The notes under the pieces are model-generated. The model saw only the letters and a list, made by a program, of their open reading frames with translations. It was not told where the DNA came from and ran no database searches. From positions 1,224,679 through 1,288,678 of the forward strand of contig JBFWJC010000001.1 in NCBI GenBank assembly GCA_050253415.1: DNA of 64,000 nt, written 5' to 3'. Origin of the DNA: Pedobacter sp. GTDB taxonomy: Bacteria > Desulfobacterota > Desulfuromonadia > Desulfuromonadales > Syntrophotaleaceae. Positions 3,513-52,968 of the stretch are shown here, in pieces (within the stretch, counting starts at the first letter, position 1; every line of letters starts with the position of its first letter). The position numbers were made by a program, and so were the translations under genes.

Positions 3513-3522
3513 TGTCAGGGCA

Positions 3523-5871: not shown

Positions 5872-5922
5872 GATGTCAGGCCTTTCAAGGTATGTGGCTG
5901 GTATGGGGCCTTGTTTGCAATA

Positions 5923-35364: not shown

Positions 35365-35376
35365 CCCTCCAGGTCG

Positions 35377-36303
35377 TTAATCACATACCGTAAAGTGTTT
35401 TCGCAGATTGGGGTCTTGGATCCCTGCCTGCACCACCGGGCCATGATCGAGCAGAAAACTGCTATTTGAGTCACTGAGCCCTTGCCGGTGCAGTTCTTCG
35501 ATGACCAGACCGCAGAGCGTTTCGATAAGGGCGACCTTTTCCTCTCCATTCGCGGTATTCAACAAGGTACTTATGTTTACGTGAATGACCGAGCCGAGAA
35601 GAGGTAAATCCTTTGTCGCCCGGTGCAGCCATTTGTAAAACGGCGGATAGCGCCGGTTGAGCAAAAACGCCATGGACATGAGGCTCTGGCAGAACTGCAA
35701 CTCAGCATAGCGGCTGGCAAAAGGTTCGTCGCGCTTGAGGCTGCGTGCCAGGTTGTACTGCCCGGTCTGGGCCATGGTCATGCAGCGTGATGCGATTTTC
35801 TTGCGGCGGATATCCTCCGGGTAGTAGTCAAGCAGATGCCGACGCCATTTGGAAAAATGATCCGCAGGATCGTGAAATACCAGGCCGTTGGTACAGACGC
35901 TCATATTTTGATCCGGCAGGGCAAGCCATTCCTGCAGCGCCTGGGGAGGATGATCAAGCCCGGTATATCGGATATAGAAACTGCGGATACTCATAACGCC
36001 CATGCGCCCGTCCTCACCGGGGCTGGTTTGACGCGGTCCAAAGCCGGAAAAGGACGGCGGCAGCTTGCGGTAAGCGGCGTCCAGTTCGGCTCCGTAAGTC
36101 GCATAATCTTCCTGCTGCAACCACAGGCAAAAGCCCGGCCCCCAGTCATGGTCGCGCGATAGAACATCGTCGAATCCGTAACATTCGGATCCCGGACCCA
36201 CCAGGCCTGCCGCGACTCGGTCGGCGATGTCCTTGAAGGACTCCTCGATCATGGGCAGTCCATGGGTGAAGAAATACTCTTTGGCCAACGGCAGTCCCTG
36301 CAT
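35377..36303 (-). CDS. DUF4037 family protein (nucleotidyltransferase-like)
   Basis: AGLVGPGSECYGFDDVLSRDHDWGP, TNG.VF.D, GQYN, PFYKW. Confidence 0.78.
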   Translation of the reverse strand: MQGLPLAKEYFFTHGLPMIEESFKDIADRVAAGLVGPGSECYGFDDVLSRDHDWGPGFCLWLQQEDYATYGAELDAAYRKLPPSFSGFGPRQTSPGEDGRMGVMSIRSFYIRYTGLDHPPQALQEWLALPDQNMSVCTNGLVFHDPADHFSKWRRHLLDYYPEDIRRKKIASRCMTMAQTGQYNLARSLKRDEPFASRYAELQFCQSLMSMAFLLNRRYPPFYKWLHRATKDLPLLGSVIHVNISTLLNTANGEEKVALIETLCGLVIEELHRQGLSDSNSSFLLDHGPVVQAGIQDPNLRKHFTVCD

Positions 36304-36317
36304 AACGAATCCTTTGC

Positions 36318-36983
36318 TTATCCTTTGATAAGCGCGATGTTCTTAACGGTGTGGCGGGCTTTGGCGGTATTGTCGGTCTGCTCGTACAGATCCCTGGCCC
36401 GTTCAAAATGGGCAAGCCCTGCCTTCTTGTCACCGATCATGGCATGGATATAGCCGATGTTGGCATGCTGATCGGCCACCTTGTCGAGGGCTCCGGCTTT
36501 TAGGAAAAGTGTTTGGGCCTGCTGGTAGTAGTCCAGAGCCAGGGTATATTCGTGTTTATCCCGGCAGACGGAACCCAGGTTGCCCAGTTGTTCGGCGACC
36601 TTCTCCGGTTGGCCGCAACGATCAAATGCATGCATGGCGTTGTTAAAGGCTGCGCTGGCTTCGTCATAGCGTTGCATGCGTGTTAGCAGCAATCCTATAT
36701 TATTCTGGGATGAAGCCATTCCTGCCGTGTCGCCCGCACTGGAAAAGATGGAATGAACGCTCTGGTAGGTTGCCAGGGCTTTATCCGGTTGCCCGGAGGC
36801 GCAGTATATGTCGGCCACGATCATCCGTTGCGTTGCCTCATTGGCGACATCCCCGGTTTCTGCATAGAGCCTGGCTGATTCTTTAAAAGCTTCCAATGCT
36901 GCATCGTAAGAAGCTGTTTTCAGGTGTTTGAGGCCATCTCGGGCTAAGATGTCCGCCATCTTCGCAGTCGGTTCGTTTGCCAT
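36318..36983 (-). CDS. Tetratricopeptide repeat protein
   Basis: Repeated about 40-aa helical units with NIG/NLG...AL.YY. Confidence 0.85.
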   Translation of the reverse strand: MANEPTAKMADILARDGLKHLKTASYDAALEAFKESARLYAETGDVANEATQRMIVADIYCASGQPDKALATYQSVHSIFSSAGDTAGMASSQNNIGLLLTRMQRYDEASAAFNNAMHAFDRCGQPEKVAEQLGNLGSVCRDKHEYTLALDYYQQAQTLFLKAGALDKVADQHANIGYIHAMIGDKKAGLAHFERARDLYEQTDNTAKARHTVKNIALIKG

Positions 36984-37093
36984 GGGGGCTCCTGTTCAGG
37001 CGGTTCAGCCATGTGGTAATCATAGTTTGCGGGGAGCTGGGTCTGGACCAGGCCTTTACGTATAATGCCGTAGACGCCATCTAATCTCAATAC

Positions 37094-37125
37094 AAAACGA
37101 ACATGATCCGTAACAAGATGAACAT
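37094..37125. promoter_or_regulatory. Putative DeoR/GlpR-type operator upstream of the TPR operon
   Basis: AAAACGAACATG (37094-37105) and ATGAACAT (37118-37125). Confidence 0.6.
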
Positions 37126-37296
37126 AAAAGATCAGTCTTTGTGGTAGGAGTGTGAAAAAAGGGGGGAAACAATTTGCGCCGCAGAATGGTTTTATAATAA
37201 ATTCAAACAGACACTTGTTTTCACCTCTCCAACATGCAAGGAAATATTCTTGAGGGTCGGTTCTGTCCTGCTTGCATTTTATGATAAAGGGGCATC

Positions 37297-38203
37297 ATGG
37301 ATCAGATGACTTCGGGCTATGAAAATCTTTTGGAAAACCTTTTTGAGGGGCTTTATTTTGTTGATGCGGATCGTACGATCATTCGATGGAACAAAGCCGC
37401 TGAGAAACTGACGGGCTTCACATCCGCGGAGATGCTCGGAAAGCACTGCTCGGACAACCTGCTGAACCACGTCGATGAAAATGGTCGCCAGCTTTGCATT
37501 GGGCACTGCCCCCTGGTTAGGGTTATGGACGAGGGTCTCCCGCGGGAGCAGGATGTTTTTCTTCACCATAAGAATGGTCATCGCCTTCCGATCCGAGTGC
37601 GTGCCCATCCGTTATGCGACAGTGGCGGAACGGTGGTCGGAGCCGCTGAGCTGTTCACTGACTTGAGCGAAAGCTCCGGTGTCATGCAGCAGATGGAAGA
37701 TTTTAAGCGACAGGCTTTGACGGACAGCCTGACCGGTTTGCCGAACCGGGCCTGTCTCGAGGTTGAGTTGGAACGTTGCCTGGATGAATACAAGCGTTAC
37801 GGTTGGAATATAGGTCTGTTGTTCCTGGATGTTGATCATTTCAAGGCCGTCAACGATACTTTCGGGCACGATCGTGGCGACGATGTCCTGCGTCTTGTCG
37901 CCACGACTCTTGCGCATAATTGCCGTGCATCCGATATCGTCGGTCGCTGGGGGGGGCGAGGAATTCGTCGGATTGGTGCGCAATGCAACCCCTTTGAATC
38001 TGCTGCATATCGCCGAACGGAACAGGATGCTTGTGGAGCAGTCTTTTATCATGGTTGATGGGCGGCCCTTGGGCGTGACCATTTCCCTTGGTGCTGTACT
38101 GGCCCGGCCTGGCGAATCGGCGGAAAGTCTTGTGCGGCGCGCCGATCAGCTTATGTTTGAAAGTAAAAACAAGGGGCGAAATTGCGTCTCGTCCGATGTT
38201 TGA
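37297..38203 (+). pseudogene. PAS-GGDEF diguanylate cyclase frameshifted at a G8 run
   Basis: First frame ends VGRWGG then junk; the other frame resumes GGEEF...RADQLMFESKNKGRN; G8 at 37949-37956 where G7 restores RWGGEEF. Confidence 0.85.
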
Positions 38204-38720
38204 TGTTTTGTGTCTGATTTTCAGGGTCGCTGGTTAGCGGGCCTGTAGTCCTGTCCTGTTCATCTCCCACTGTTTGAAATTCAGTTGGCGTATTTTTTGT
38301 TTCACCTTCCTGTCATCCCTTCCCGAGTACTGCCTGCCTTTTTACCGCCTGTTGCACGATTTTGAACCAAACGACAAGTTTTCTCTGATGCCCTACGCTG
38401 GTTTGATGTTCACCATGATTCCCTTCGATTGCAGATCTCCTTTTGGCAGCCGCCGGCTTTTTCTGAAAGAAATTTTGTGACCCGTACGTCGATAGATCCA
38501 GGTTTTATCGCTCTATTTGTGATTGTTTGTAAAGTGGGTGATCGTGTGTGAGACCTTGAGGTGTGCGATGTGGAATGTTTGTGTATTGTCCTTATGTCTC
38601 CGGTCGTTCCATTAAATCGCCGTAAAAACAATAAGTTGTCAGCGGGTGTTGGCGCAGTGGAAGCATTGCGTGTCGGTTTTTGGTAGGTAGATAATGTTTT
38701 GTTGTGTAATAAAATTTACG

Positions 38721-38763
38721 CTTGACAACAAAAACGAACATCATTTACATTCATGTCGAACAC
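38721..38763 (+). promoter_or_regulatory. Putative cutC promoter with operator in the spacer
   Basis: TTGACA 38722-38727, 18 bp containing AAACGAACAT, TACATT 38746-38751; second CGAACA at 38757-38762. Confidence 0.7.
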
Positions 38764-38921
38764 AATGGTTCATTGATCCATGGTTGCAAGGTTGATTTAT
38801 CTGAGCCTGCTCGGGATTTGTTGGAGGGGGTAAGCAGATACGTAAGGCTGTTGCATCATCGGATCGGGGACGTTTAGCTCATGCTTGCTAACCTTTTACA
38901 CCCAAATAACGGAGGTTGATC

Positions 38922-41348
38922 ATGGCAGGATCTTGTTGTGGTGGAATTGCGGAAGGTGCCACCCGGAAAAAGTTCGAGCTTCCCGAGCGTATTCAGCGCC
39001 TCAAGGATGCTTATCTGCAAGTTAAACCCAGCATCGCTATCGGTCGGGCTCTGGCTTTTACAGAAGTCACCCGGGAAAACCCCGGTATGCCGAATATTCT
39101 GCGTCGCGCGCTGGCTTTTAAAAAGGCCTGTGAAAACGCTCCGTTGCTGATTCAGGCGGACGAGTTGATTGTTGGCCATCCCTGCGGCAAGCCGCGCGCC
39201 GGTGCTTTCTCTCCGGATATCGCATGGAAATGGGTGCGTGACGAGCTGGATACCATTGGTACCCGTTCGCAGGATCCATTTGTCATCACCGAAGAAGACA
39301 AGCAAGTCATGCGCGACGAGATCTTCCCCTTCTGGGAAGGTAAATCCCTTGATGAAATCTGCGAAACCCAATATCGCGAAGCCGGACTCTGGGAATTTGC
39401 CGCAGAGGCTTTCGTCAGTGACTTGTCCTATCATCAGGTTAATGGCGGTGGCGATACCTGCCCCGGTTTTGACGTGATCCTGTTCACTAAAGGTGTCAAC
39501 GGTATCAAGGCTGAAGCCGAGGCGAACCTTGCCAAGCTGTCCATGGACGTGCCCGACGACATCGATAAAATTTATTTCTACAAAGCGGCCATTCAGACCT
39601 GCGAAGGTATCGTCCTCTACGCCAATCGCCTGTCTGCCTATGCGATGGAGCTGGCAGCCAACGAGTCGGATCCCAAGCGCAAGGCCGAGTTGGAAAATAT
39701 CGCCAAGGTCAACGCTCGCGTACCTGCCAATCCTCCGAGTACTTTCCAGGAAGCCCTGCAGTCGATCTGGACCATCGAGTCGCTGTTTGTTATCGAGGAA
39801 AACCAGACCGGTCTGTCCCTGGGACGTCTTGACCAGTATGTCTATCCCTGCTTTGAGGCCGATATTAAAGCCGGTCGCATCGATGAAAACCAGGCTTTTG
39901 AACTGATGAGCTGTTTCATCATCAAATGCGCTGAAATGATGTGGCTGACCAGTGAACTGGCCGCCAAATATTTCGCCGGCTACCAGCCGTTTATCAACCT
40001 GTGCGTCGGTGGGCAGAAGCGTGAAGGCGGCGACGCCACCAATGACCTGACCTACCTGGTTATGGATGTTGTTCGCAAGCTCGGCGTGTACCAGCCTTCA
40101 CTGGCCTGTCGTATTCATAATCAGTCCCCGCAAAAATACCTGCAGAAGATAGTCGAAGTCGTCAAGGCGGGGCTCGGCTTCCCCGCCTGCCATTTTGACG
40201 ATGCCCACATCAAGATGATGCTTCGTAAAGGCTACGATTTCGAAGATGCCCGTGACTACTGCCTGATGGGCTGCGTCGAGCCTCAAAAGTCGGGTCGCAT
40301 CTACCAGTGGACTTCGACTGGCTACACCCAGTGGCCCGTTGCCATCGAGTTTGTGCTTAATCGTGGTGTCATGAAGTGGCATGGTACCAAGCAGGGTATC
40401 GATACCGGTGCTCTGGACCAGTTTTCCACCTACGAGCAGTTCGATGCCGCCGTCAAAGAGCAGATTGAATACATCTGCAAGATGTCCGCTGTCGGCACCG
40501 TTATCAGCCAGCGGGTTCACCGCGACGTGGCACCCAAGCCTTTGATGTCCATGTTCGTTGAAGGCTGCATGGAGACCGGCAAGGATGTTTCCGCAGGTGG
40601 TGCCGTGCTTAACCACGGCCCTGGTTTGATCTTCTCCGGCCTGGCCACTTACGTGGACTCCATGGCCGCCATCAAGAAGCTTGTGTTTGACGACAAAAAA
40701 TACACTCTGGCCGATTTTCAGAAGGCTCTCGATGCCAACTGGGAAGGTTACGAGCAGATGCGTCAGGATTGCCTTGATGCTCCCAAGTATGGCAACGACG
40801 ATGACTACGCAGACTTGATCGCTTCTGACCTGGTCGAATCGACTGAAAAGATCTGCCGTCAATTCAAGATGCTCTACTCCACCATGAGCCACGGAACCCT
40901 GTCTATCTCCAACAATACTCCCATCGGGGAACTGACCGGCGCGACTGCGGACGGCCGCATGGCCTTTACCCCGCTGTCTGACGGCATCAGTCCTGTGCAG
41001 GGTGCCGACAAGAAGGGGCCCACCGCTATTATCAAGTCGGTCAGCAAGATGAACGCTGAATCGATGAATATCGGCATGGTGCATAACTTCAAACTGATGG
41101 ATGGCCTCCTTGAAACTCCTGAAGGAGAGGCCGGTTTGATTACCTTGCTGCGCACGGCGTCTATTATGGGCAATGGCCAGATGCAGTTCAGCTATGTCGA
41201 CAACGATGTTCTTAAGCAGGCCCAACAAAGCCCTGAGGAATATCGTGATCTGATGATTCGCGTGGCAGGTTACAGCGCCTTCTTTGTCGAGCTCTGCAAG
41301 GAAGTTCAGGATGAAATCATCAGCCGCACCGTGCTGAAAGGTTTTTGA
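38922..41348 (+). CDS. cutC: Choline trimethylamine-lyase (glycyl radical enzyme)
   Basis: RVAGYS glycyl loop; GCVEP thiyl Cys/Glu; choline-pocket residues at CutC spacing ([16 protein letters not shown] at Cys+13, Y at Cys+17); GGAGG RBS. Confidence 0.93.
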
Positions 41349-41361
41349 GTCTAATCGCATC

Positions 41362-41389
41362 GGGGTGGCCCGGGTTTCCGAGCCACCCC
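41362..41389 (+). terminator. GC-rich hairpin after cutC (weak U-tract)
   Basis: ggggtggcccgg-gttt-ccgagccacccc. Confidence 0.5.
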
Positions 41390-41632
41390 AGTGTGTTTCA
41401 TATGTGTCTCTGGAATGTTGAAGCGGGCCGAAGGAATTTTTCCATAATAGCATGTTTGATTTTATGTATGTTTCGATGAAATAAGCCTGATTCGCACTCT
41501 GCTATCCCGGATGTGAACCGGTCTTGATCTGGTACAGGGAAAAATTTTGCCAGATGTAAGCCCTAGGAGTCGCCTGCGGAAGTCTCGCGCTGGCGGTACA
41601 AGCAGGACATTACTCGATGGAGGAGCAAGGCA

Positions 41633-43000
41633 ATGACGAAAGTGCGGTTTTTGAAGAAAGTTTGGCTTGGTGTGCTGGCCGCTTGCATGGGTTTGACGGC
41701 GGTGCCAGTCCAAGCGGAAATTTATGGAGTTGACTATCAGGGGTTGCATGCCGGGGTTGGTTTGAGCGCAGCCATGGGCACCTTCCACACCAACAATTCC
41801 AATTTTGGCGCCGGTGGCGTCGTTAATGGCGACAAGGACAACAGCTGGTTTGAGGCGTACATCATGCCCAGCCTGAATCTGTCCTACGACACGGGCAAGT
41901 TCGGCATGTTCTATGGAGAGTTTTCCTACGTAGGCACTCAGACTTTCGGCGGCGTTGACCCCGCAGGCTTTTCCCTGGATGACAACGGCAATGAAAATCC
42001 CGGTGACTGGGAATCCGAACTGTTCTATGCCGGGTGGAAATCCGGGAAATTGATCCCCGGGTTGCCTGAAAATGTCATCGATATCTCCTATGGTGAGCAG
42101 ACCTTTTCAATCGGCGACGGTTTCCTTGTGGCCGATGCCGAGTTCGACGGTGCCAAGGGTTGCTACTGGATCGCTCCCCACAAATCTTTCCGTGAAACCG
42201 CCATTCTCAAGATAAATACCCAACCGGTACGCGCGGATATTTTTTACCTGAAGGCCGATAAAGATTACGCCGATGCCGAACTGTACGGGATTAACGTCGA
42301 GTACATCAAAGAAGGCTGGGGTACTGTCGGTGCCAACTACATGAAAGTTACCAACGCTGACGAGAACAGCGCCTGGTATGCCAACCGCGATGGCATGGAT
42401 ATCTGGTCTGTGCGTTTCCAGGGTACTCCGCTGGCTTCTTTCGGGCTGGAGGAATTGTTCCTGTCCGGTGAGTATGCCGGGGAGAGCGGCGGGGACCGCG
42501 CAAAGGTTGATGCCTATGGCTACTATGTCGAGGCCGGCTGGACCTTTTCCAACCTGCCCTGGACCCCGACTCTCAGCTACCGTTATGCCTTTTTCTCCGG
42601 CGACGATGTTGATACCGATGAATATGAAGGTTTTGACCCTCTGTTCTACGGTTTCCTGCGTGGCTGGGGAACCCACTTCATGGGTGAGGTTACCGGCGAA
42701 TACTACCTGTTCAACAATAATCAGCATGTACAGATGGTGCATCTGAATGTATTGCCCACCGACAAACTGTCCCTCGGAGCTATCTACTACAACTTCACGT
42801 TGGACAAAGCCAGTGCCTGGGGTGTTGACTCGGATGATTTCTCCGATGAAATCAACGTTTACGCCGACTATGCTCTCAACGACAACGTGTGGCTGAGCGG
42901 CGTTTTCGGGTGTGCATTCCCTGGCGAAGGTGCTGAGCAAGCCTTCGGTGACGACCAGGCCATGATGATTGTAGAAGCTTATGTGACCTTTACCTTCTAA
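41633..43000 (+). CDS. Outer-membrane beta-barrel channel (alginate-export/AlgE-like)
   Basis: Signal peptide ending VQA, alternating aromatic strands, SGDD...FDPLFYG, C-terminal Phe. Confidence 0.75.
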   Translation: MTKVRFLKKVWLGVLAACMGLTAVPVQAEIYGVDYQGLHAGVGLSAAMGTFHTNNSNFGAGGVVNGDKDNSWFEAYIMPSLNLSYDTGKFGMFYGEFSYVGTQTFGGVDPAGFSLDDNGNENPGDWESELFYAGWKSGKLIPGLPENVIDISYGEQTFSIGDGFLVADAEFDGAKGCYWIAPHKSFRETAILKINTQPVRADIFYLKADKDYADAELYGINVEYIKEGWGTVGANYMKVTNADENSAWYANRDGMDIWSVRFQGTPLASFGLEELFLSGEYAGESGGDRAKVDAYGYYVEAGWTFSNLPWTPTLSYRYAFFSGDDVDTDEYEGFDPLFYGFLRGWGTHFMGEVTGEYYLFNNNQHVQMVHLNVLPTDKLSLGAIYYNFTLDKASAWGVDSDDFSDEINVYADYALNDNVWLSGVFGCAFPGEGAEQAFGDDQAMMIVEAYVTFTF

Positions 43001-43011
43001 CACGTTATGTC

Positions 43012-43047
43012 AACGCGGACCCTGGCTTTTGGGGTCCGCGTTAAAAA
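43012..43047. terminator. Hairpin after the porin gene
   Basis: aacgcggaccc...gggtccgcgtt. Confidence 0.55.
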
Positions 43048-43171
43048 ACTTCCTCCCAGGGCTCCCCGTTCAGGCCGATAGGTTTGCGGGGGGCCTTTTT
43101 ACTTTTCTCTGTCCTGGCGGCTTTCTGGGTTGGGGTGAAATGGTTTGCACAATGAACGCGGAGTATTGCAC

Positions 43172-43483
43172 ATGGGAAGAGATGGTTCAGATGATCCCTG
43201 TCGGGGTCGCTATCTGCAGAAGCTTGCACAGAATGATGAGATCCCTGGCATTACCGTTTGTATGGGGAAATCCTGCTATGTGCGCGGAAACCAGCAGAAC
43301 CTGGTGTATATCGAGGGCTTTCTGAAGCAGCGGGGATTGGATGTGCGGGTCGATTTGCGTGGCAAGCGGTGTGGCGAGTCCTGTGAGTCCGGGCCACATA
43401 TTACTATCGGCAATTCGGCGTATAGCGATGTTACTTTGGTGAGACTCAAAGACTTGTTGGTGAAACATTACGCGTGCACGTGA
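43172..43483 (+). CDS. Thioredoxin-like [2Fe-2S] ferredoxin (NuoE/HfsA-like)
   Basis: ITVCMGKSCYVRG ... CGESCESGP. Confidence 0.65.
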   Translation: MGRDGSDDPCRGRYLQKLAQNDEIPGITVCMGKSCYVRGNQQNLVYIEGFLKQRGLDVRVDLRGKRCGESCESGPHITIGNSAYSDVTLVRLKDLLVKHYACT

Positions 43484-43523
43484 TCGGTACAGGCAGCGGC
43501 CAAGCCAGGCATGCACGAATCTT

Positions 43524-44723
43524 TTATCCCCGGCTGGGGAGGAGTGCTTCCTGCAGCATGTCTTCAACTCTGACGTGATTGGTTTCCAGCCAGCGTAGCA
43601 GGCGGACATGATGTTTCAGGTAAAACAGATACTCTTCGTCCGGGCAGTTCCCTGTCTCCAGGTAGTAGGTGTCTACGGAGGCCCATTTGATCAGCGATAG
43701 GCTGGCGGCCGTCAGCATGGGCCTGAATAGCCGGATTTCCGATGGCAAGAGGAGGCCGGGTTTGCTGGAGCGTTCGGCCCGTTCCTGATAAGACTGTAAA
43801 AATAGTGCAGCCTTTTGTAGCCAGAGTTTGCCGTCCATGGGGTCTTCCCAGCAGCTGCAGAAGTAGATGACCGCCAGGGCTACATCAAACATGCGCAGGT
43901 CGAGGCAGGCACGATCAAAGTCGAACACGCCGATGACCCGGTTGAGGTTGTATTTCTGGTTGCCAGGATGGAAATCACCATGGATGGCGATAACGGGCAG
44001 ATCCAAAGCTTCCGCCAGTTGTTCGGATGTCTGCTTGCTGATGCGCAGGATGTCCGCAAGGTTGTCCAAAAAGTATTTATCGAAGCAACTATCCTCGGCC
44101 AACTTGGCGCAACGCTGCAGGTCTGCCGGAAAACGGGACAGGACTTTAAGGATGGGTTGGTGCGGGGAGGGGAGCGACCCGGGATCGAACCCGGCCGTGG
44201 AGCAGTGGAGTTCTGCAAGGATCCTTCCGGAGTAGATGTATTCTTCGTCGCTCAGTCGGTTAGATGTCCAGGAGTATTTGTCTTCTCCGCCGATGAATTC
44301 AAACATGGCGTAATGAAGATCTTTGGCGCCCTGAGTTTCCAGGGATTTCAGTTGAACAAAGTTCTCGCCCCCATTCGTGCGTATGAGTCGCGCAATCATT
44401 TGGCTGCCGCTGGCCACAATGTGGTCTATCAGGGCGTGCTCAAAGTAGATGTGGTCAATAGATGTTTCCGGACGATAGAGGCGCAGAAGATATTTTTTGG
44501 AATGACCGTTCTTTAGCATTGTAACGCTAAAGCTCAGGTTGGTGTAGCCACCGTAAAGTTGAGCGACCTTTTGCACGTTGCCCAGGGTATAGTAATCCCT
44601 CACAACTTGCGTTGCCTGGTCGATCAGCAGGTTGCAGGGCTGCTGTTGTGGCGGCTCTACGAAGTAGGGGAGGCGTCTTGGGGGTTCCCAGTTCCTTCGT
44701 AGTAATGGTCCTCCGCCCGGCAT
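43524..44723 (-). CDS. APH/choline-kinase-superfamily phosphotransferase (homoserine kinase type II-like)
   Basis: GGYTN, IHGDFHPGN, VFDFD; start overlaps the DeoR stop (TAATG). Confidence 0.8.
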   Translation of the reverse strand: MPGGGPLLRRNWEPPRRLPYFVEPPQQQPCNLLIDQATQVVRDYYTLGNVQKVAQLYGGYTNLSFSVTMLKNGHSKKYLLRLYRPETSIDHIYFEHALIDHIVASGSQMIARLIRTNGGENFVQLKSLETQGAKDLHYAMFEFIGGEDKYSWTSNRLSDEEYIYSGRILAELHCSTAGFDPGSLPSPHQPILKVLSRFPADLQRCAKLAEDSCFDKYFLDNLADILRISKQTSEQLAEALDLPVIAIHGDFHPGNQKYNLNRVIGVFDFDRACLDLRMFDVALAVIYFCSCWEDPMDGKLWLQKAALFLQSYQERAERSSKPGLLLPSEIRLFRPMLTAASLSLIKWASVDTYYLETGNCPDEEYLFYLKHHVRLLRWLETNHVRVEDMLQEALLPSRG

Positions 44724-45550
44724 TAATCGGCCACCAGTACTCGAATGCCAAGGGCTTTGAGGTCGTGCAGGTATTCCTCGGGGAGTTTGTGATCGACAAT
44801 CAGTAAATCGACCTTATCGATGGGCGCGACTACAAGGTCGGCCACGCGGCCGAACGAGCTGTGGGTGGCAAGCACGATTATCTGCCCCCTGGTTTGCTGT
44901 ATCATGGCGCGCTCAAGGGCGGCTTCGGTAAAGGAAGGAGTGGTTATGCCGTCGCGGAAGCTGATGCCGTCAGGAATCAAAAAAGCCTTTTTGGGGTGAA
45001 GCTCCTGAATCGTTTCCATGGTCAGCGCTCCTTCCATGGAGTGGGTTTCGGGACGGTACTCGCCGCCAAGAAGGATCAATTCGGCCCTTTTCCCCTTGAT
45101 CTCCTGGATGGCGCCTACATTGTTGGTATAGACACGAACGGGCATGTCCGGATCAAGGTGCCGCAATACATAAAGTGCCGTGGTCCCCGAATGGAGAAAC
45201 AGGGTGTCGTGGGGTTCGATCAGGGAGGCGGCTTTGCGGCCGATCTGATCCTTGATATCGGGCAGTTCCTTAAGTCGGGTTTCGTAAGGCTCCTCGTGGG
45301 TCATACGTTCCTGGCGATAAACCGCACCACCATACGTACGTTCAAGGAGGCCTTGGCGCTCAAGGGTTTCGAGGTCGCGACGAATAGTCATTTCCGACAC
45401 GCCCATCATTTCGCTCAAATCCGTTACTCGAATAGTAAGTCTTTCCCTTAACAGGTCGCGGATTCGCATATGCCGTTCCGCTGGCAGTAACTGGTCGTTA
45501 TGGCTAACCTGTCCATTGGCCTTGGTAGTCTTATTATTGTCTTCAAGCAT
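44723..45550 (-). CDS. DeoR/GlpR-family transcriptional regulator
   Basis: VSEMTIRRDL HTH, RTYGGA, SGTT, LLGGE. Confidence 0.93.
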   Translation of the reverse strand: MLEDNNKTTKANGQVSHNDQLLPAERHMRIRDLLRERLTIRVTDLSEMMGVSEMTIRRDLETLERQGLLERTYGGAVYRQERMTHEEPYETRLKELPDIKDQIGRKAASLIEPHDTLFLHSGTTALYVLRHLDPDMPVRVYTNNVGAIQEIKGKRAELILLGGEYRPETHSMEGALTMETIQELHPKKAFLIPDGISFRDGITTPSFTEAALERAMIQQTRGQIIVLATHSSFGRVADLVVAPIDKVDLLIVDHKLPEEYLHDLKALGIRVLVAD

Positions 45551-45556
45551 CGTGTT

Positions 45557-45612
45557 TGTTCGATCCTTTCGTTTTTTGTTCTTTTATAGCACTTTTGGAA
45601 GCTTTAGGGCAA
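45557..45612 (-). promoter_or_regulatory. Putative deoR promoter with operator-like repeats
   Basis: Minus strand TTGCCC-18-TATAAA, then AAGAACA / AAACGAA / ATCGAACA before the ATG. Confidence 0.45.
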
Positions 45613-45998
45613 TGGAAGTTTTTACGATAAGTGTCTGCTAAAATACGTTTTTGATTCCCGGGATTACCGCTTGACCGGCGGTTTTAGGAGTTTTGTGGAG
45701 ATCCTCTTCTCCCTTTGAAGTGCGGAGCCATAGTTGGGGCGGGTTTGTTAGACGATGAGCATTACCATATGAAGAATTATGTTTGCTTGTGAGAAGCTTA
45801 GCGGTGCGGTGCGTGGTATATGCTGTCATCCCGATGTTTGGATTAAAAGGCTTTAGGTGTATTTGAAGATGTTGAAAAAACGTGGTTTTATGATTCGCTG
45901 TCAAGGCTATGAGATAGGGCTTTCCAGGCGATTGCAGGGGTGTGTGCAGATCAGGGCTAGGGTGTTCTAGGATGCTCGATGTTTCTTTTAAAATAACA

Positions 45999-46041
45999 CT
46001 TGACAACATAAACGAACATGACCTAGAGTTTGATTGTTCAT
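45999..46041 (+). promoter_or_regulatory. Putative promoter/operator of the transporter operon
   Basis: CTTGACAACATAAACGAACAT is 20/21 identical to 38721-38741; TAGAGT -10 at the same 18-bp spacing; inverted TGTTCAT downstream. Confidence 0.7.
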
Positions 46042-46556
46042 GTGGACACTAAAGTTACTTGAGGGCGACGGCTCTCGGGCCTGTTTGTTTACGGATGTTT
46101 GCGTTAGCTTGTTACGCGTTGCATTTGTAATACATAGGTTGCAAAGGGCGTACAGGTGCATGCAACGATCCGTTTGGAGTTTGTTCCAAATCGGGTTTTA
46201 GCAAGTCCTTTTAAGTTGCAGGACTTCGGCACTTACGACGCAATAGGTTGGTTCGATTGTGGTTGCTGTCTGGGTGATGGTCGCCGGACGGGTTTGAGAT
46301 GTGTTTTCGAGGCGATGAATGCCAAGCGGATTGAATGCGAGGTCCTTTGTTTCATGGGGGCTCGTCTGCTGACCCGTGGAGGGCAAATCCTCCAAAGGTG
46401 GGCACTGCCGGCTGCCTCATCGGTCGGTGTTTTGGTAATCCACAAAAGTATTATGCAAATGATTGAGTTGCCCTTTTCTGATTGAAGTGTGCTTTACCAA
46501 TGGCAGTTTTCACTCTAAGGGTAGGACAAAACAACCATTTTATTGGAGACGGCATT

Positions 46557-47588
46557 ATGGCTAACGGGGTGCAATCAGCAAGTATCGCCGGAACACGGGT
46601 TTCGGCACGGCAAGTTTTTGAACAAAAAGAACTGGGGTTTGTCAAGCGAGGCCTGGCAACCGCTCTGGGTTCGGGTATGTTGTGGGGGCTTGACGGTGTC
46701 ATTCTCGGCATAGCGCTGGCGATGGCTCCTTTTACCGCGGGTGCCACGATGTATGCGGCACCACTGGCCGGTTCGGCATTGCATGACGGGTTCGCCGGTC
46801 TGTGGCTGGCTCTTTACAATATCTTTACCGGTCGCTGGAAAGACATCGGCCGTTCCTTGAAAACCTTCCCTGGTTTTATCGTTTGCCTGGGGGCATTGCT
46901 CGGCGGCCCGATCGGCATGGGTGCCTATCTGCTTGGTATTAACTTTGCCGGCGCTGCTTATGCCATGGGGATTTCCGCCGGCTATCCGGTCGTTGGCGCC
47001 ATTATGGCCCGTCTGATTCTCAAAGAAAAAATCAGCCCTCGTGTCTGGGCCGGCATTCTTATCTGTGTGGCCGGTGCAGTCATTCTTGGCTATGTTCCGC
47101 CTGAGGGTGGCTCTATGCCGCACTTCTACCTCGGTATCGGTTGTTCCTTGCTGGCTGCATTTGGCTGGGGTACGGAAGGTGTTCTGGCTACCTTCGGTAT
47201 GGACATGGTAGACCCGGCGGTCGCCATTAATATTCGCGAAGCCACTTCCTGTGTTGTTTCCTTGCTGGCAGTCCTTCCGTTTGTTGCCGGACTGGCTGTT
47301 TTCGGTCAGGCGCTGATTACGCCTAATGTTGTGTGGATTATCGCTCTTGCAGGTTTGGCCGGTGGTTTCTCCTACCTGCTCTGGTACAAGGCTTTCAGCA
47401 TGTGCGGTTGCAGTCGCTGCATGGCCCTGAACATCACCTACGCTATCTGGGGTCTGGTGTTCTCCTATTTCCTGACAGACGTTGCGATTACCACCAACCT
47501 GGTCATCGGCGCCATCGTCATCACCATTGGCGCTATCATGGTCGTTGGCAATCCCAAAGAAATGATCAACCTGCGGGCGGAGGTTTAA
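46557..47588 (+). CDS. EamA/DMT-family transporter, LicB-like (probable choline uptake)
   Basis: About 10 TM segments; LHD.F, LGGPIGM.AY, GWGTEGV, MALNITY..W; context in the cut locus. Confidence 0.75.
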   Translation: MANGVQSASIAGTRVSARQVFEQKELGFVKRGLATALGSGMLWGLDGVILGIALAMAPFTAGATMYAAPLAGSALHDGFAGLWLALYNIFTGRWKDIGRSLKTFPGFIVCLGALLGGPIGMGAYLLGINFAGAAYAMGISAGYPVVGAIMARLILKEKISPRVWAGILICVAGAVILGYVPPEGGSMPHFYLGIGCSLLAAFGWGTEGVLATFGMDMVDPAVAINIREATSCVVSLLAVLPFVAGLAVFGQALITPNVVWIIALAGLAGGFSYLLWYKAFSMCGCSRCMALNITYAIWGLVFSYFLTDVAITTNLVIGAIVITIGAIMVVGNPKEMINLRAEV

Positions 47589-47589
47589 A

Positions 47590-47874
47590 ATGGCAGCTGT
47601 ACTTCCAATGCGTTTCCGGATCCTTCATTACTTCTCCACTGTGAAGGAAGCTTCGACAAAAGAACTGATGAACGGCCTGCGTTCCGAATACGGCAGCGAA
47701 GGGCAGTTCAACGAAAATGTCATCAACGAACATCTCATGTCCATGCGGGCAGGAGGACTGATCGAAACCAACGATATCGAATTGGACCAGAGCAATAACC
47801 TGGTTGTCAATTATTCGATCACCGAATTCGGGCAGGGGCGTCTCAAGTATCTGCCTAAATCCTGGAAGATCTAA
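47590..47874 (+). CDS. Small winged-helix-like protein
   Basis: 94 aa, starts 1 nt after the transporter stop; EYG.E.QF ... YSITEFG wing pattern. Confidence 0.65.
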   Translation: MAAVLPMRFRILHYFSTVKEASTKELMNGLRSEYGSEGQFNENVINEHLMSMRAGGLIETNDIELDQSNNLVVNYSITEFGQGRLKYLPKSWKI

Positions 47875-47887
47875 ACGTAAGCAGCAG

Positions 47888-47930
47888 CTGAAAAATCGCC
47901 GTCCTAATGATCGGGGCGGCGATTTTTCAG
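47888..47930. terminator. Terminator hairpin
   Basis: ctgaaaaatcgccgtcc...gggcggcgatttttcag. Confidence 0.8.
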
Positions 47931-47990
47931 AGTAATTGGTGAATGGTGATTGATTTTAAATGATTTTGACCCATCACCAGTCACCAGTTA

Positions 47991-48159
47991 CTGGGAGTCT
48001 GTCGGACTATCCATGAGCCGGCTGCAAATTCGTTTGTTTGGCCCATATTTCAGGTCCTTTTTGGCCCATAGTTACAACTATGAACCTTCAAACGACCTAA
48101 AATCTGTTCTCAAACATCCAAATTTTCGCTTCGCCCCTTATAGTCCGACAGGCTCCTAG
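47991..48159. mobile_element. MITE-like element with 20-bp terminal inverted repeats
   Basis: ctgggagtctgtcggactat ... atagtccgacaggctcctag (18/20 complementary); no credible coding capacity. Confidence 0.7.
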
Positions 48160-48190
48160 TCACTCCGTTTCACTGTCGAGAGGTAACACC

Positions 48191-49147
48191 ATGAGTGAAC
48201 AAGCAACGATAAAAGGCGTGGTTTTCGATATCCAGAAGTATTCCATGCACGATGGTCCCGGCGTGAGAACGCTGGTCTTCCTTAAGGGATGTCCTCTGCG
48301 CTGTAAATGGTGTTCCAACCCTGAAAGTATTTCCTCCGCATTTCAAGTAATGTGTCTGGCCGACCAGTGTGTTTCCTGCGGTCGGTGTATCGATGTCTGT
48401 CCTTCCGGGGTTCACAAAATGGTAGCCGTCAGCAATGGTCAACCGCAGCACCAGGTCGACCGTACCGCAACCTGCATCGGTTGCGGTGTCTGCGCGAAAA
48501 GTTGCCCAGCCAAGGCGTTGCGTATTGCGGGCAAGGAAATGACGGTGGACGAAGTGGTCAGCGTCATTATGGAAGATCAGTTTTTTTATTTCACATCCGG
48601 CGGGGGGGTAACCATCGGCGGTGGTGAACCGACTTTTCAGCCGGCCTTCGCCGGTGCCATACTACGTCAAGCTCGTCTCAATGGCGTGCATACCGCCATG
48701 GAAACCTGTGGCCAGTCAACGTGGGAGATCTATCAGGAGCTGGCACCTTACACCGATCTGTTTCTTTATGATCTCAAGCATATTGATCCTGATAGGCACA
48801 AGGCCAATACCGGTGTCAGCAATGAACGGATTTTGGACAACCTCGCCCGCCTGCTCGAACTCGGGGCCAATGTGCTGGTAAGGATCCCGCTGATCGCAGG
48901 AGTGAACGATGACGTCGATTCACTGTCCCGGGCTTTGTCCTGGCTTGAGAAGACCGCGAACAATGCCTCCAATCTCAAAGGGGTCGAGGTCTTGCCTTAT
49001 CACCGCTTGGGGGAAAGCAAATACCATCAGCTCAATGAGGAATATCCCATGGGCGCCATGGCCGGGCATACGGACGATCAGTTGAAAGAGGTTGAAAAAA
49101 TTCTTTTGCAATTCAATCTGCCGGCGCGTATCGTTAAGCACGGCTGA
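48191..49147 (+). CDS. cutD: Choline TMA-lyase activating enzyme (radical SAM)
   Basis: HDGPGVRT, GCPLRCKWCSNPE, two ferredoxin motifs, GGGEP, LPYH. Confidence 0.88.
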   Translation: MSEQATIKGVVFDIQKYSMHDGPGVRTLVFLKGCPLRCKWCSNPESISSAFQVMCLADQCVSCGRCIDVCPSGVHKMVAVSNGQPQHQVDRTATCIGCGVCAKSCPAKALRIAGKEMTVDEVVSVIMEDQFFYFTSGGGVTIGGGEPTFQPAFAGAILRQARLNGVHTAMETCGQSTWEIYQELAPYTDLFLYDLKHIDPDRHKANTGVSNERILDNLARLLELGANVLVRIPLIAGVNDDVDSLSRALSWLEKTANNASNLKGVEVLPYHRLGESKYHQLNEEYPMGAMAGHTDDQLKEVEKILLQFNLPARIVKHG

Positions 49148-49610
49148 TTGGCATCGGTCTTGCTCTTTAACAGCGTGTGCGTTTTTTATACACGGAGGTG
49201 GCCTTGTTCTTCCTCCGCCTTTAGCGCATTGGCGTCAGCTTTATATCAGTGAATTGTTGCTGACTCCCTGGTCTGCACGTAAAAATCCAGAACCTTGAAA
49301 ATTCAATGCATTCGGGGCGGGGCTTATGCCTGCCGCTTGGCACGTTTGCGCCTGACAGGAATGACTTTTAACGGAGTCTTTCCTTTGTGCCGGTCTGCAA
49401 GCCTGAATGATGCGGCACGTTGTTCTATCTATTTTTAATAATTTTGGCTAGATGTTGCTGATGGATAGTGATATGTTTTTCAGCACGACTGCCTTATTTT
49501 TAGAAGCACCTGTAGATAAATTTTGTTGGTTTTTAAATACCTTTAATCATGCTCGGAGTACGGGGCTCTTCAGCCGCAATTTTTTTCGGGCTTTTGCATG
49601 AGGTACCATT

Positions 49611-50036
49611 TTGGACAAGATCGATTGGACGCTCTGGTTACAGGTGGGCAATTTTCTGTTGTTGATCGTGATCCTGCAGCGGTTGCTGTATCGGCCGTTA
49701 CTGGCGATTCTTGATCAGCGTCAGGTCCGTCAGGATAACGCTGTGCAGCGCAGCCGGGATCTGGAGGCGCAGATCGCACAGCAGCAAGACGCTTTTGACG
49801 CACAACTGTCGCAGGCCAAGCTGCAGGCGCAGCAGGCGCGCAGCGCGGCGTTGGAGCAGGCACAAAAACAACAAGCCTTGCTGATCGGCGAAGCGCACGA
49901 TCAGGCTATGGCTACCCTGGAACAGGTCCGCCGCGAGGTGGCCGGGCAGCTTGCCGTCGAAGCCGGGCTGCTACAAAGCTATGCCGCGCGCCTGGGCGAT
50001 GATGTGGCTGAACGACTGTTGGGGAGGCCGCTGTGA
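49611..50036 (+). CDS. ATP synthase F0 subunit b' (start uncertain)
   Basis: N-terminal TM (QVGNF...LYRPL) plus coiled coil; first gene of the atp operon. Confidence 0.8.
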   Translation: MDKIDWTLWLQVGNFLLLIVILQRLLYRPLLAILDQRQVRQDNAVQRSRDLEAQIAQQQDAFDAQLSQAKLQAQQARSAALEQAQKQQALLIGEAHDQAMATLEQVRREVAGQLAVEAGLLQSYAARLGDDVAERLLGRPL

Positions 50037-50608
50037 TAAACACCAGACGATGGATTCGGATTGCAGGCCTGAGTGCCCTGGCGTTGCTGGTAGCGGGAAG
50101 TGCCCTTGCCAGCGAAGCGGGTGGACATGGCGGCGGACAGGTTAAAGATTTTCTGTACCGTTTGCTCGACTTCGGCATTACCTTCGGTGCGCTGTATTTT
50201 CTTTTGCGCGGACCGCTCAAACGGGCCCTTGGAGATCGCCGTCAACGGCTGGTCGATGAACTCGAACAGTCCCGTCAGTTGCAGGCAAGTGCAGAGAGTC
50301 GATTTGCCGCCTGCCAGCAACAGTTGGTTGATGCCGATGCCCAGATTGCCAAACTTACGGCCGAGCTGCAGGGTGAAAGTGTCATGCAGTGCCTCCGCAT
50401 TGAAGAACAGGCGCAAAAACTGGCGGCGGACATCCGTGCCGAAGCTTCTCGCAGTGCAGAACGTGAAGTTGCTGCGGCGCGCAAACAGCTGCATGCCGAA
50501 GCCGTGCGGCTGGCGATGGAATTGGCCGAACAGCGCATCAAGCAGCATATGGTACCCGAAGATCAGGCGCGTATGGTTGACGAATATCTGCGCAAGGCAG
50601 GGGAGTAA
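50033..50608 (+). CDS. atpF: ATP synthase F0 subunit b
   Basis: ASEAGGHGG N-terminal extension, TM, coiled coil. Confidence 0.85.
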   Translation: MINTRRWIRIAGLSALALLVAGSALASEAGGHGGGQVKDFLYRLLDFGITFGALYFLLRGPLKRALGDRRQRLVDELEQSRQLQASAESRFAACQQQLVDADAQIAKLTAELQGESVMQCLRIEEQAQKLAADIRAEASRSAEREVAAARKQLHAEAVRLAMELAEQRIKQHMVPEDQARMVDEYLRKAGE

Positions 50609-50610
50609 TA

Positions 50611-51156
50611 GTGAAAACAACAGCGATATCAAGACGGTACGCCAAGGCATTGGTCAACCTGGCGGCACGCGACGGGCAACTCGAAGCGACCTTCGAGCAG
50701 CTCGGCAGGTTGCAGCAGGCGTTTGCCTGTGAGCCGCGTTTGTTGCCACTGCTGAGCAGTCCGACGTTGGCGGCCGATAAAAAAGCTGGTCTTCTGGAGG
50801 GGCTGAGCAGTTACCTGCAACTGAGCAAGACTCTGCGTAATTTGCTGGGACTGTTACAGCAGCGTCAGAGGTTGGAATACTTCGACGCCCTGGTAGCGGC
50901 CTTTCGCGAGCAGGCCGATATACAGTTGGGCATTGTACGTGCGCAGGTGCAAAGTGCGCAACCTCTGGATGCAAACCAACGACAGGCTATTAGCGCGCAA
51001 TTGGAAAAACGCTACGGTAAACAACCGGCGCTGGAGTTGGCCGTTGATCCGGAGCTTTTGGGTGGCGTGCGCATCGAAGTTGACGGGCAGGTGCTTGATG
51101 GAACGCTGCGGTCCGGACTGCGCCGGATGGCGGGATATCTCAACCTGAATCCGTGA
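50611..51156 (+). CDS. atpH: ATP synthase F1 delta
   Basis: ISRRYAKAL, VDPELLGG, LDGTLR. Confidence 0.92.
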   Translation: MKTTAISRRYAKALVNLAARDGQLEATFEQLGRLQQAFACEPRLLPLLSSPTLAADKKAGLLEGLSSYLQLSKTLRNLLGLLQQRQRLEYFDALVAAFREQADIQLGIVRAQVQSAQPLDANQRQAISAQLEKRYGKQPALELAVDPELLGGVRIEVDGQVLDGTLRSGLRRMAGYLNLNP

Positions 51157-51289
51157 GTTAGTGCTCATTCGGAAACTCTGGATGGGCATAGTGTCGTTTT
51201 TATATGGGAAACGAGCCGTTTTCGGATGAAAATGAGTCAGGGATAGGAACATGGCCCGGTTACATTTTATGGATTCCGGTTCAACAATA

Positions 51290-51439
51290 GATGCTTTCGC
51301 AAAAAGACATGAGATGGCTAGTCAGAAACTTTGTCCGGCAAGGTGTCGTGGTTTTTCAGGGGGAAAGGCATACATAGGGTATGTACAGGTCCTGAAAAAA
51401 CGCGGCAACGCTGTAGGGCGGATTTTTTGCGATGCGATC
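51290..51439. repeat. MITE-like palindromic element inside the atp operon
   Basis: gatgctttcgcaaaaa ... tttttgcgatgcgatc ends, nested internal stems (tttttcagg/cctgaaaaa, tacat/atgta). Confidence 0.6.
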
Positions 51440-51459
51440 AATAAAGGGTGAAGGACGTT

Positions 51460-52968
51460 ATGGACATCAAAGCAGAAGAAATCTGCTCCATCATCGAGCA
51501 GCAGATTGAAAACTTCGACCGCGAGATCGAAATCAGCGAAACGGGCACCATTATCTCCGTTGGCGACGGTATTGCCCGCATCCACGGCCTGACTCGGGCC
51601 ATGGCCGGCGAACTGCTGGAGTTTCCTGGCGACGTCATCGGTATGGTGCTCAACCTCGAAGAAGATAATGTCGGGGCCGCAATTTTGGGCGAAGCCCATC
51701 ATATCAAGGAAGGCGACAGCGTGCGGCGCACCGGCCGTATCGTCGAAGTACCCGTCGGCGAGGCGCTCATCGGGCGCGTGGTCAACGGCATCGGTGAGCC
51801 TATTGATGGACTCGGCGAGTTACTGGGCGCCGAGGCGCGGCAGGTCGAAGTCAAGGCACCCGGCATCGTCACCCGTAAATCGGTCAACCAGCCGGTGCAG
51901 ACCGGTCTCAAAGCCATCGACGCCCTGGTGCCCATCGGCCGAGGCCAGCGCGAACTGATCATCGGCGATCGGCAGACCGGCAAGACCGCGTTGGCCATCG
52001 ACACCATTATTAATCAAAAAGGCCAGGATATGGTCTGCATCTACGTCGCCATCGGACAGAAACAGTCGACAGTGGCGCAGGTGGTGGACAAACTCAAGCA
52101 GCACGGTGCCATGGAGTACACCATTGTCGTGTCGGCCGGTGCCAGTGAGCCGGCACCGCTGCAGTTCATTGCCCCCTATGCCGGGGTGACGATGGGTGAA
52201 TTTTTCCGCGACAGCGGCCGCCACGCTCTGATCGTTTACGACGATCTTTCCAAGCATGCCGTCGCGTATCGACAGTTGTCCTTGCTGCTGCGGCGTCCGC
52301 CCGGCCGCGAAGCCTTTCCCGGTGACGTCTTCTACCTGCACAGCCGTCTGTTGGAGCGGGCTGCCAAGCTCAACGACGAACTTGGTGGCGGCAGCCTCAC
52401 CGCCCTGCCGATCATTGAGACTCAGGCTGGCGATTTGTCCGCCTACATCCCGACCAACGTCATTTCCATCACCGACGGTCAGATCTTCTTGGAAGCCGAC
52501 CTGTTCTACTCCGGGGTGCGCCCCGCCATCAACGTTGGCCTGTCGGTCTCCCGCGTCGGTGGCAGCGCCCAGGTCAAAGCCATGAAACAGGTGGCCGGTA
52601 CCCTGCGCCTGGCGCTGGCCCAGTACCGGGAGATGGCTGCGTTTGCCCAGTTCGGCTCCGATCTCGACGCCGCCACGCAGAAACAGCTGGCACGCGGCGC
52701 GCGTCTGGTGGAAATCCTCAAGCAGCCCCAGTATCGGCCGCTGCCGGTGGAAAAGCAGATCATGCTGATCTATGCCGCCAACAATGGCTACGTTGACGAG
52801 TACCCGATCAATGCCCTGCGACGCTACGAAGACGAGCTGTACAGCTATCTCGAGCACAGCCATGGCGACCTGCTCAAGGATCTGGCCGAGAAAAAAGCCA
52901 TCGACAGCGATCTCGACGGCCGCATCAAAGCCACCCTCAAGGCGTTCGGGGAACAGTTCACGGCGTAA
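51460..52968 (+). CDS. atpA: ATP synthase F1 alpha
   Basis: [28 protein letters not shown]. Confidence 0.97.

Follow-up and report, generated by a model that had tools for sequence, protein, structure and literature searches.

A DeoR regulator coupled to an MthK-like kinase in a microcompartment-free cut cluster: a possible phosphocholine-sensing pair for choline catabolism

Introduction

The conversion of choline to trimethylamine matters for carbon and nitrogen flow in the gut and in sediments, and outside the enterobacteria little is known of how cutC is induced. The 64,000 nucleotide (nt) stretch of contig JBFWJC010000001.1 of Pedobacter sp. (assembly GCA_050253415.1), in the following called the window, encodes a choline trimethylamine-lyase, CutC, and its activating enzyme, CutD. 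A gene for a DeoR-family regulator and a kinase gene are located between cutC and cutD. What is a kinase doing next to the regulator of a pathway that starts from free choline? A sequence-only reading of the window had proposed that the two form an inducer-generating pair, the kinase making phosphocholine or a similar compound as the effector of DeoR.

In brief, we suggest that DeoR and the kinase may be a constitutive sensor pair with phosphocholine as the inducer. We put this a little short of an even chance. Three of its elements are inferred: the substrate of the kinase, the protein that binds the operator and the effector itself.

The pair is part of a genuine cut cluster

Both open reading frames (ORFs) of the pair exist (Table 1). 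Read on the minus strand, the deoR stop codon TAA (44725-44723) and the kinase start codon ATG (44723-44721) have one base in common, giving the TAATG overlap that the sequence-only reading had seen. The junction reads ggcATTAatcgg on the plus strand and TTAATGCC on the minus strand. Elsewhere in the genus it is TAATG in genomes G070 and G092 and TAAATG in G094, and the kinase start and the tight coupling are retained in all four genomes of the genus. The two genes are separated by 18 nt in G116 and by 15 nt in G164. Because the tight junction is conserved in the genus, we regard the arrangement as real and not as a chance overlap of ORFs.

The flanking genes are bona fide cutC and cutD. The cutC product scores 1580 bits against the CutC equivalog TIGR04394 (cut-off 1050), and its best PDB matches are by far the CutC chains, with 1261-1502 bits. 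The activase passes the CutD equivalog TIGR04395 with 398.8 bits (cut-off 360). By these sequence matches CutC is a standard free-choline lyase, as had been assumed when the pair was first noticed. No microcompartment shell genes (PF00936) were found in the whole genome.

The kinase belongs to the MthK family

The kinase motifs HGDxHxxN and DFD had also been read correctly; they are present as IHGDFHPGN at residues 247-255 and FDFD at residues 267-270. The Brenner motif HxDxHPGN and the DFD motif are intact, with H248, D250, H252, N255 and D268-F269-D270 invariant in 33 family members. The protein matches the Pfam family APH (PF01636) with 80.7 bits (cut-off 23.2), and its AlphaFold (AF2) model is confident (predicted local distance difference test, pLDDT, 89.2) and has the general APH fold. 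A Foldseek search with the model gave a probability of 1.00 to NahK, 2ppq, APH(9) and choline kinases. Substrates are not distinguished by this fold search, in which the best matches were NahK, the homoserine kinase 2ppq, the aminopropanol kinase 6ef6 and choline kinases.

A characterized relative is MthK of Eubacterium limosum (Jiang et al., J Biol Chem 2025, PMC12155760). According to that paper, MthK phosphorylates choline (Km 2.8 uM) and supplies phosphocholine to the MttB-family methyltransferase (demethylase) MthB. It can also use dimethylethanolamine phosphate as the phosphate donor for choline, a reversible reaction that depends on ADP. The same paper describes a LicB/MttP-like EamA transporter as part of the mth cluster and reports no growth of E. 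limosum on phosphocholine. Our MthK reference is the 422 amino acid (aa) ORF L099:1480-2748, which by eye equals the MthK printed in Fig. S5 of PMC12155760; locus L099 was taken from a genome that shares its family with an Acetobacterium locus. The MthK ORF is divergent from the MttB ORF in L099, matching the published arrangement. Our kinase aligns with this MthK over 365 of its 399 residues (E 4e-49), and the P-loop, LLRxY, Brenner and DFD blocks are common to both proteins and retained in 5 of 5 full-length cut-linked copies. This homology places the kinase in one family with MthK, for which choline kinase activity is proven.

Public sources name relatives of the kinase 'homoserine kinase type II'. 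The kinase reaches 56.4 bits against NF003558 (cut-off 271) and 39.6 bits against TIGR00938 (cut-off 255.9), and a separate homoserine kinase candidate is encoded elsewhere in the genome (TIGR02535, 555 bits, cut-off 446). The widespread label is not supported by these model scores, and a true homoserine kinase, one of the two cases named earlier that would overturn the inducer-generating pair, was not what we found.

The usual company of the family was counted within 5 kb of the kinase in 49 further loci, all non-cut and from many phyla. An MttB-family gene is present at 25 of these, a DeoR gene at 10 and a dimethylglycine-dehydrogenase-like (DMGDH-like) gene at six, and CutC at none. Firmicute loci have the order EutBCA, PocR/AraC, corrinoid protein, kinase, MttB, corrinoid protein, pterin methyltransferase, HAD hydrolase and RACo. 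In Thermoleophilia the order is DeoR, kinase, MttB, corrinoid protein and MtmB-like, with a gap of 50-90 nt between deoR and the kinase gene, and in Chloroflexota it is DeoR (divergent), kinase, CBS protein, PF01633 kinase and DMGDH-like. An EamA gene with a small gene here called orf94 follows the MthK homologue, independently of DeoR, at 4 of 50 non-cut loci (L027, L052, L055 and L060).

In the kinase tree the cut-linked kinases make up a single clade of the family (Shimodaira-Hasegawa-like approximate likelihood ratio test, SH-aLRT, 100), and the DeoR-linked kinases all fall within one of its two main groups. The tree is unrooted, the distant APH outgroups having given long branches and one having been misplaced, and we claim no direction of transfer; the broken or partial loci L010, L058 and L062, as well as L026, are omitted from the trees. 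The DeoR-kinase pair looks borrowed from phosphocholine-demethylating (mth-type) clusters.

The DeoR regulator and a 20-nt box

The regulator consists of an HTH_DeoR domain (61.2 bits) and a DeoRC sensor domain (135.3 bits). It reaches no equivalog model, the best being AgaR with 169 bits (cut-off 260), and 7l6l is the only solved DeoR relative. Members of the family such as DeoR, GlpR, FucR, UlaR and LacR respond to phosphorylated metabolites. Its identity to the copies in three other genomes of the genus is 91-95%, and the five closest genomes that lack CutC lack the regulator too. Of five genomes tested in other phyla, four have their best genome-wide match to it in the copy beside a kinase.

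The promoter-like sites of cutC and eamA, the gene for a candidate choline importer between deoR and cutD, have the 20-nt box TTGACAACAnAAACGAACAT in common. Only three exact copies of the box exist in the 4.1-Mb genome. Likewise, its 14-nt core has three exact genome sites, one each before cutC, eamA and a second eamA gene. The third copy is at L116 1501-1520 (core G000:C1:1295514-1295527), approximately 6.8 kb beyond the end of the window, and the second eamA behind it (L116:53-1093, minus strand) encodes a product 58% identical to the EamA of the window. The exact 9-mer AACGAACAT occurs five times in the window against 0.49 expected, a number reached in 0 of 100 shuffles, and all five are within 37096-47733. 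With one mismatch allowed, the 9-mer is not enriched (15 against 13.7 expected).

The relatives have retained the box: before cutC it is present in 5 of 5 and before eamA in 4 of 5, in each case with 0-4 mismatches; the copy in G116 has two mismatches and is located at a contig edge. A second TCGAACA follows approximately 22 nt after the box at cutC promoters, and at eamA promoters the box is followed by a TGTTCATATGAACA-like palindrome. The promoter and terminator scans as a whole were at chance (8 versus 9.0 and 15 versus 14.1, respectively), and the two promoter-like positions alone were used. The GAACA 7-mer was not enriched near DeoR genes of other phyla, and the operator could not be traced beyond cut-type loci. 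G164 has a second eamA-orf94 pair behind a box with two mismatches.

We take the half-site AWCGAACATW to resemble that of Escherichia coli GlpR. DeoR is probably the protein that binds the box, because the cluster encodes no other full regulator. No box was found upstream of the deoR-kinase operon in the window, which fits a constitutively made sensor unit. Whatever the effector, the 20-nt promoter/operator box marks a small predicted choline regulon.

Distribution, genome content and selection

Our sample of the class comprised 401 genomes. The kinase was found in six of these and CutC above cut-off in the same six, which span three genera and two families and, being kin, are not independent. 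All five relatives have the same order: CutC, porin, the kinase and DeoR on the reverse strand, EamA, orf94 and CutD.

The genome is 100% complete and encodes no MttB (PF06253), MthB included, no LicD (PF04991) and no other PF01633 kinase. With MttB/MthB and LicD absent, we found no known consumer of phosphocholine.

The ratio of nonsynonymous to synonymous substitution rates (dN/dS) of the kinase is 0.14-0.26 in five comparisons across two families, with dS near saturation, and the kinase is under purifying selection. Its ORF is intact in 4 of 5 relatives, and contigs of four other metagenome runs have no indels inside 43524-45550. The in-frame TAA reported for the kinase of G164 is in fact the stop codon of deoR, and this kinase is intact.

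A possible sensing circuit

We suggest that the locus may work as follows. DeoR and the kinase would be made from one small, box-free operon, and DeoR would sit on a GAACA-type operator overlapping the promoters of cutC and of the two EamA choline-transporter genes. Choline would leak in via the basal transporter and be converted by the kinase to phosphocholine, which would act purely as a signal, because the organism has no known route that consumes it. Phosphocholine would then bind the sensor domain of DeoR, as phosphorylated metabolites do in other DeoR/GlpR-type repressors, and cutC, the porin gene, eamA, orf94 and cutD would be turned on. The phosphocholine pool could drain again as CutC removes free choline, because the MthK reaction is reversible via ADP, as described in PMC12155760.

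Such a sensor unit is, in our view, the most economical reading, because phosphocholine has no known consumer here and the kinase gene is grouped with the regulator, apart from the structural genes. It is also favoured because DeoR and MthK homologues adjoin in other phyla, where phosphocholine is a true intermediate, and because DeoR-family sensors usually take phosphorylated ligands.

A broader proposal can be built on this. Free-choline catabolism would be switched on by an off-pathway phosphorylated derivative, the kinase would be kept only for the signal, the sensor pair would have been grafted from phosphocholine-demethylating clusters onto a microcompartment-free cutCD, and the kinase equilibrium would turn micromolar choline into an amplified phosphocholine signal. 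We offer this combination tentatively, the balance leaning somewhat against it. If true, a sensor for phosphocholine demethylation has been put to new use in the control of a competing pathway for one and the same nutrient, and the kinase is a rare case of an enzyme kept solely to make an inducer.

Evidence against the circuit and other explanations

Several findings weigh against phosphocholine sensing by the pair. Most family loci combine the kinase with other regulators (PocR/AraC, GntR or TetR) and MttB genes, which argues that the ordinary role of the family is metabolic. The regulator, moreover, exists without the kinase. A search for DeoR in metagenome contigs gave three loci, of which two repeat the cut cluster; in the third, L124, a DeoR 84% identical to ours has the same chromosomal neighbourhood and adjoins genes for an outer-membrane barrel and an OpuA-type ABC transporter, and this contig, which covers approximately 7 kb on one side of DeoR and 4.6 kb on the other, contains no kinase, cutC or eamA. 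In G057 and G109, of another family, a DeoR 61-63% identical is located beside a molybdenum hydroxylase, and kinase and CutC are absent. In two Thermoleophilia genomes, DeoR paralogues of equal similarity are encoded apart from any kinase. As for the kinase, its identity to the proven enzyme MthK is only 29%, and it does not reach the Pfam Choline_kinase model PF01633 (24.7 bits, cut-off 29, residues 53-88 only). Compared within genome pairs, its dN exceeds that of DeoR by a factor of 6-8. The HGDFHPGN codons of G092 (L010 ~9864-9885) have lost one T of a TTT run, a 1-nt deletion that may be a sequencing error in this 40-contig draft or a pseudogene frameshift, and the L122 kinase has a frame change on a contig in which EamA is broken too. 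Finally, a box with four mismatches in G164 points at deoR itself. Of the inducer-generating pair first proposed, the part concerning the kinase has gained ground, with its membership in the MthK choline-kinase family and no phosphocholine consumer found, and the tie of the regulator to the kinase has been loosened by the DeoR orthologues without one.

These orthologues and paralogues lead to a rather unlikely alternative, in which DeoR senses free choline or another compound (glycerol-3-phosphate or glycerophosphocholine) and the kinase has a metabolic job of its own. It could trap choline after EamA uptake, build a phosphocholine reserve or, in reverse, free choline (and ATP) from imported phosphocholine for CutC. 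The EamA genes that follow MthK homologues independently of DeoR agree with such a job, as does the mostly metabolic role of the family, and PMC12155760 describes phosphate transfer by MthK as reversible and ADP-dependent. Yet the kinase gene shares an operon with the regulator gene instead of joining the structural genes behind a promoter with a box, a fermenter would presumably spend ATP to phosphorylate a substrate that CutC takes in its free form, and genome-wide searches for MttB and LicD revealed no phosphocholine consumer. E. limosum, a different organism, could not grow on phosphocholine according to the same paper. A related small alcohol or amino alcohol (dimethylethanolamine, ethanolamine or homoserine) as the substrate, with the pair controlling or detoxifying a non-choline compound, seems improbable to us. 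The choline-specific context of CutC, CutD and a LicB-like EamA opposes it, as do the widely missed homoserine kinase models, the TIGR02535 candidate elsewhere in the genome and the 395 of 401 genomes of the class that live without this kinase. What speaks for it is the low identity to MthK, the fold search that does not separate substrates, the motif FDFDR in the cut clade against FDFDW in others, and the sulfotransferase-like, MtmB-like or acyl-CoA-ligase genes beside other family clades, which may mean other substrates.

Could the kinase instead be a leftover? A DeoR-kinase-EamA-orf94 module from a phosphocholine-demethylating cluster would then have joined cutCD, and the kinase would be drifting with little or no function. 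Its dN relative to its neighbours, the frame changes in G092 and L122, the ties of the rest of the family to MttB genes and the single cut-linked clade could all be read this way. We consider it decidedly unlikely nevertheless: a dN/dS far under 1 across two taxonomic families, catalytic blocks intact in every full-length copy and a start and tight coupling kept throughout the genus argue against it, the single T lost from a TTT run in G092 may be a sequencing error, and the L122 contig breaks EamA as well. Very unlikely, in our judgement, is a kinase that is itself the sensor and, with choline and ATP bound, strips DeoR from the DNA, comparable to Gal3/Gal1-Gal80 of yeast. Translational coupling would give matched amounts of the two proteins, and the pair are neighbours in several phyla, but the fully kept catalytic residues would be needless for a pure sensor, the genes are 50-90 nt apart in Thermoleophilia and DeoR retains a complete DeoRC small-molecule sensor domain. 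A structure prediction of the DeoR-kinase complex (score 0.00, verdict 'no answer') counts for neither side.

Other features of the cluster and the kinase loci

The features of the cluster are collected in Table 1. For EamA the later start is likelier, the alignment with the 58% identical paralogue beginning at residue 26.

Table 1. Genes and sequence elements of the cut cluster, with positions in the window
Feature	Position	Strand	Remarks
Further exact copy of AACGAACAT	37096..37104	+	190 nt upstream of the PAS-GGDEF gene 37297-38058
Box 1, TTGACAACAAAAACGAACAT	38722..38741	+	Contains the -35 hexamer of the cutC promoter-like site and extends into its spacer
Half-site TCGAACA near Box 1	38756-38762		Second half-site
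cutC, choline trimethylamine-lyase	38916..41348	+	TIGR04394; likelier start is ATG 38923 behind GGAGG
Outer-membrane channel (porin) candidate, Alginate_exp	41633..43000	+	PF13372, 50.6 bits; syntenic in G070, G094, G116 and G164
Small thioredoxin-like [2Fe-2S] ferredoxin candidate	43145..43483	+	PF01257, 28.7 bits; G116 has one too
MthK-like choline kinase candidate, APH fold, 399 aa	43524..44723	-	PF01636; MthK homology
DeoR-family regulator, 275 aa	44723..45550	-	HTH_DeoR and DeoRC
Box 2, TTGACAACATAAACGAACAT	46000..46019	+	At the eamA promoter-like site
Imperfect palindrome TGTTCATGTGGACA	46035-46048		By Box 2
EamA/LicB-like transporter, candidate choline importer	46482..47588	+	PF00892; likely true start ATG 46557
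orf94, small protein	47590..47874	+	Invariably after EamA; weak winged-helix likeness
cutD, CutC-activating radical SAM enzyme	48191..49147	+	TIGR04395

Upstream of cutC, a trio of DUF4125, DUF4037 and TPR genes (34765-36983) has synteny in G070, G094 and G164, and the PAS-GGDEF gene is located between this trio and cutC. The Alginate_exp-family channel candidate is found directly after cutC in every cut-type locus that reaches that far. The metagenome contig L124, from a close relative, has the same flanking genes, and at 1986-7828 DeoR, a barrel gene and an OpuA-type quaternary-amine transporter replace the segment from DUF4125 to cutD; its barrel-like protein of 451 aa is unrelated to the porin and occupies an analogous place beside the transporter.

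The spacer between deoR and eamA (45551-46481) is unusually long, approximately 930 nt, or approximately 1000 nt to the likelier eamA start, and contains doubtful ORFs only. In contigs of other runs it has small indels and skipped parts. An Rfam scan of 36000-51500 gave no match at E <= 0.1, and no known riboswitch was found in the 930-nt spacer.

The gene orf94 is always found behind EamA, in cut-type and mth-type loci alike. The winged-helix likeness of its product is below threshold (HTH_20, PadR), and the C-terminal tail of the E. limosum EamA (L099:2791-4083, minus strand) is faintly orf94-like (E 0.023). The protein may be an accessory domain of the transporter or a second regulator.

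Two observations concern kinase loci outside the cut clusters. In L032 (3150-4631, minus strand), and similarly in L021, both metagenome-assembled genomes of Desulfobacterales, the MttB-family gene is present as two adjacent ORFs, one of 327 aa (profile positions 30-337) and one of 161 aa (positions 345-498), as would be expected if an in-frame stop codon were read as pyrrolysine. The Chloroflexota locus L053 (9947-16449), and also L050 and L058, encode an MthK-like kinase and a true PF01633 choline/ethanolamine kinase near a DMGDH-like gene and a CBS protein, which suggests an oxidative route for phosphorylated methyl-ethanolamines.

Comparison with known systems

The kinase shares with the MthK system its homology over the full length, the same motif blocks and an adjoining EamA/LicB-like transporter gene. 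The two differ in that MthK of E. limosum feeds MthB, whereas the kinase here belongs to a cutCD cluster and is in one operon with a DeoR regulator. In the family tree MthK belongs to the other of the two main groups, and a neighbouring MthB gene, used as the contextual mark of the family in PMC12155760, is absent here. Whatever the effector proves to be, the kinase family is related to proven MthK and found in methylamine and choline clusters of many phyla.

With LicA and the PF01633 family the kinase has in common the APH fold and the Brenner and DFD motifs, and choline kinases are among its fold matches, but it is under the Pfam cut-off and the genome has no LicD (LicC was not searched for). 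Homoserine kinase type II (ThrB2) provides the nearest solved sequence relative, PDB 2ppq (E 2.5e-12), although the kinase is far under the cut-offs of both models.

Published cut clusters are generally understood to have a microcompartment shell. Martinez-del Campo and colleagues are said to have divided the canonical clusters, in 2015, into type I (Desulfovibrio and Firmicutes) and type II (Gammaproteobacteria). The cluster described here is like these in that CutC and CutD pass the equivalog models and CutC is closest to the solved CutC chains. It differs from what is generally understood of their content in being shell-free and in having an outer-membrane channel, EamA with orf94 and the DeoR-kinase pair. 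No paper turned up in which DeoR is connected to cutC, or a choline kinase to the regulation of cut genes; the lists of MthK/MthB pairs in Tables S4 and S5 of PMC12155760 were outside this search and may include deltaproteobacterial homologues.

The cluster combines components of known kinds, and its proposed control logic is unusual. The closest parallels for that logic are, as commonly understood, the circuits of GlpK/GlpR, FucK/FucR and LacR (tagatose-6-P). As in these, a kinase product would induce a DeoR-family repressor, and the GAACA half-sites resemble the GlpR operator. In those circuits the inducer is an intermediate of the pathway under control, whereas phosphocholine would here lie off the CutC pathway.

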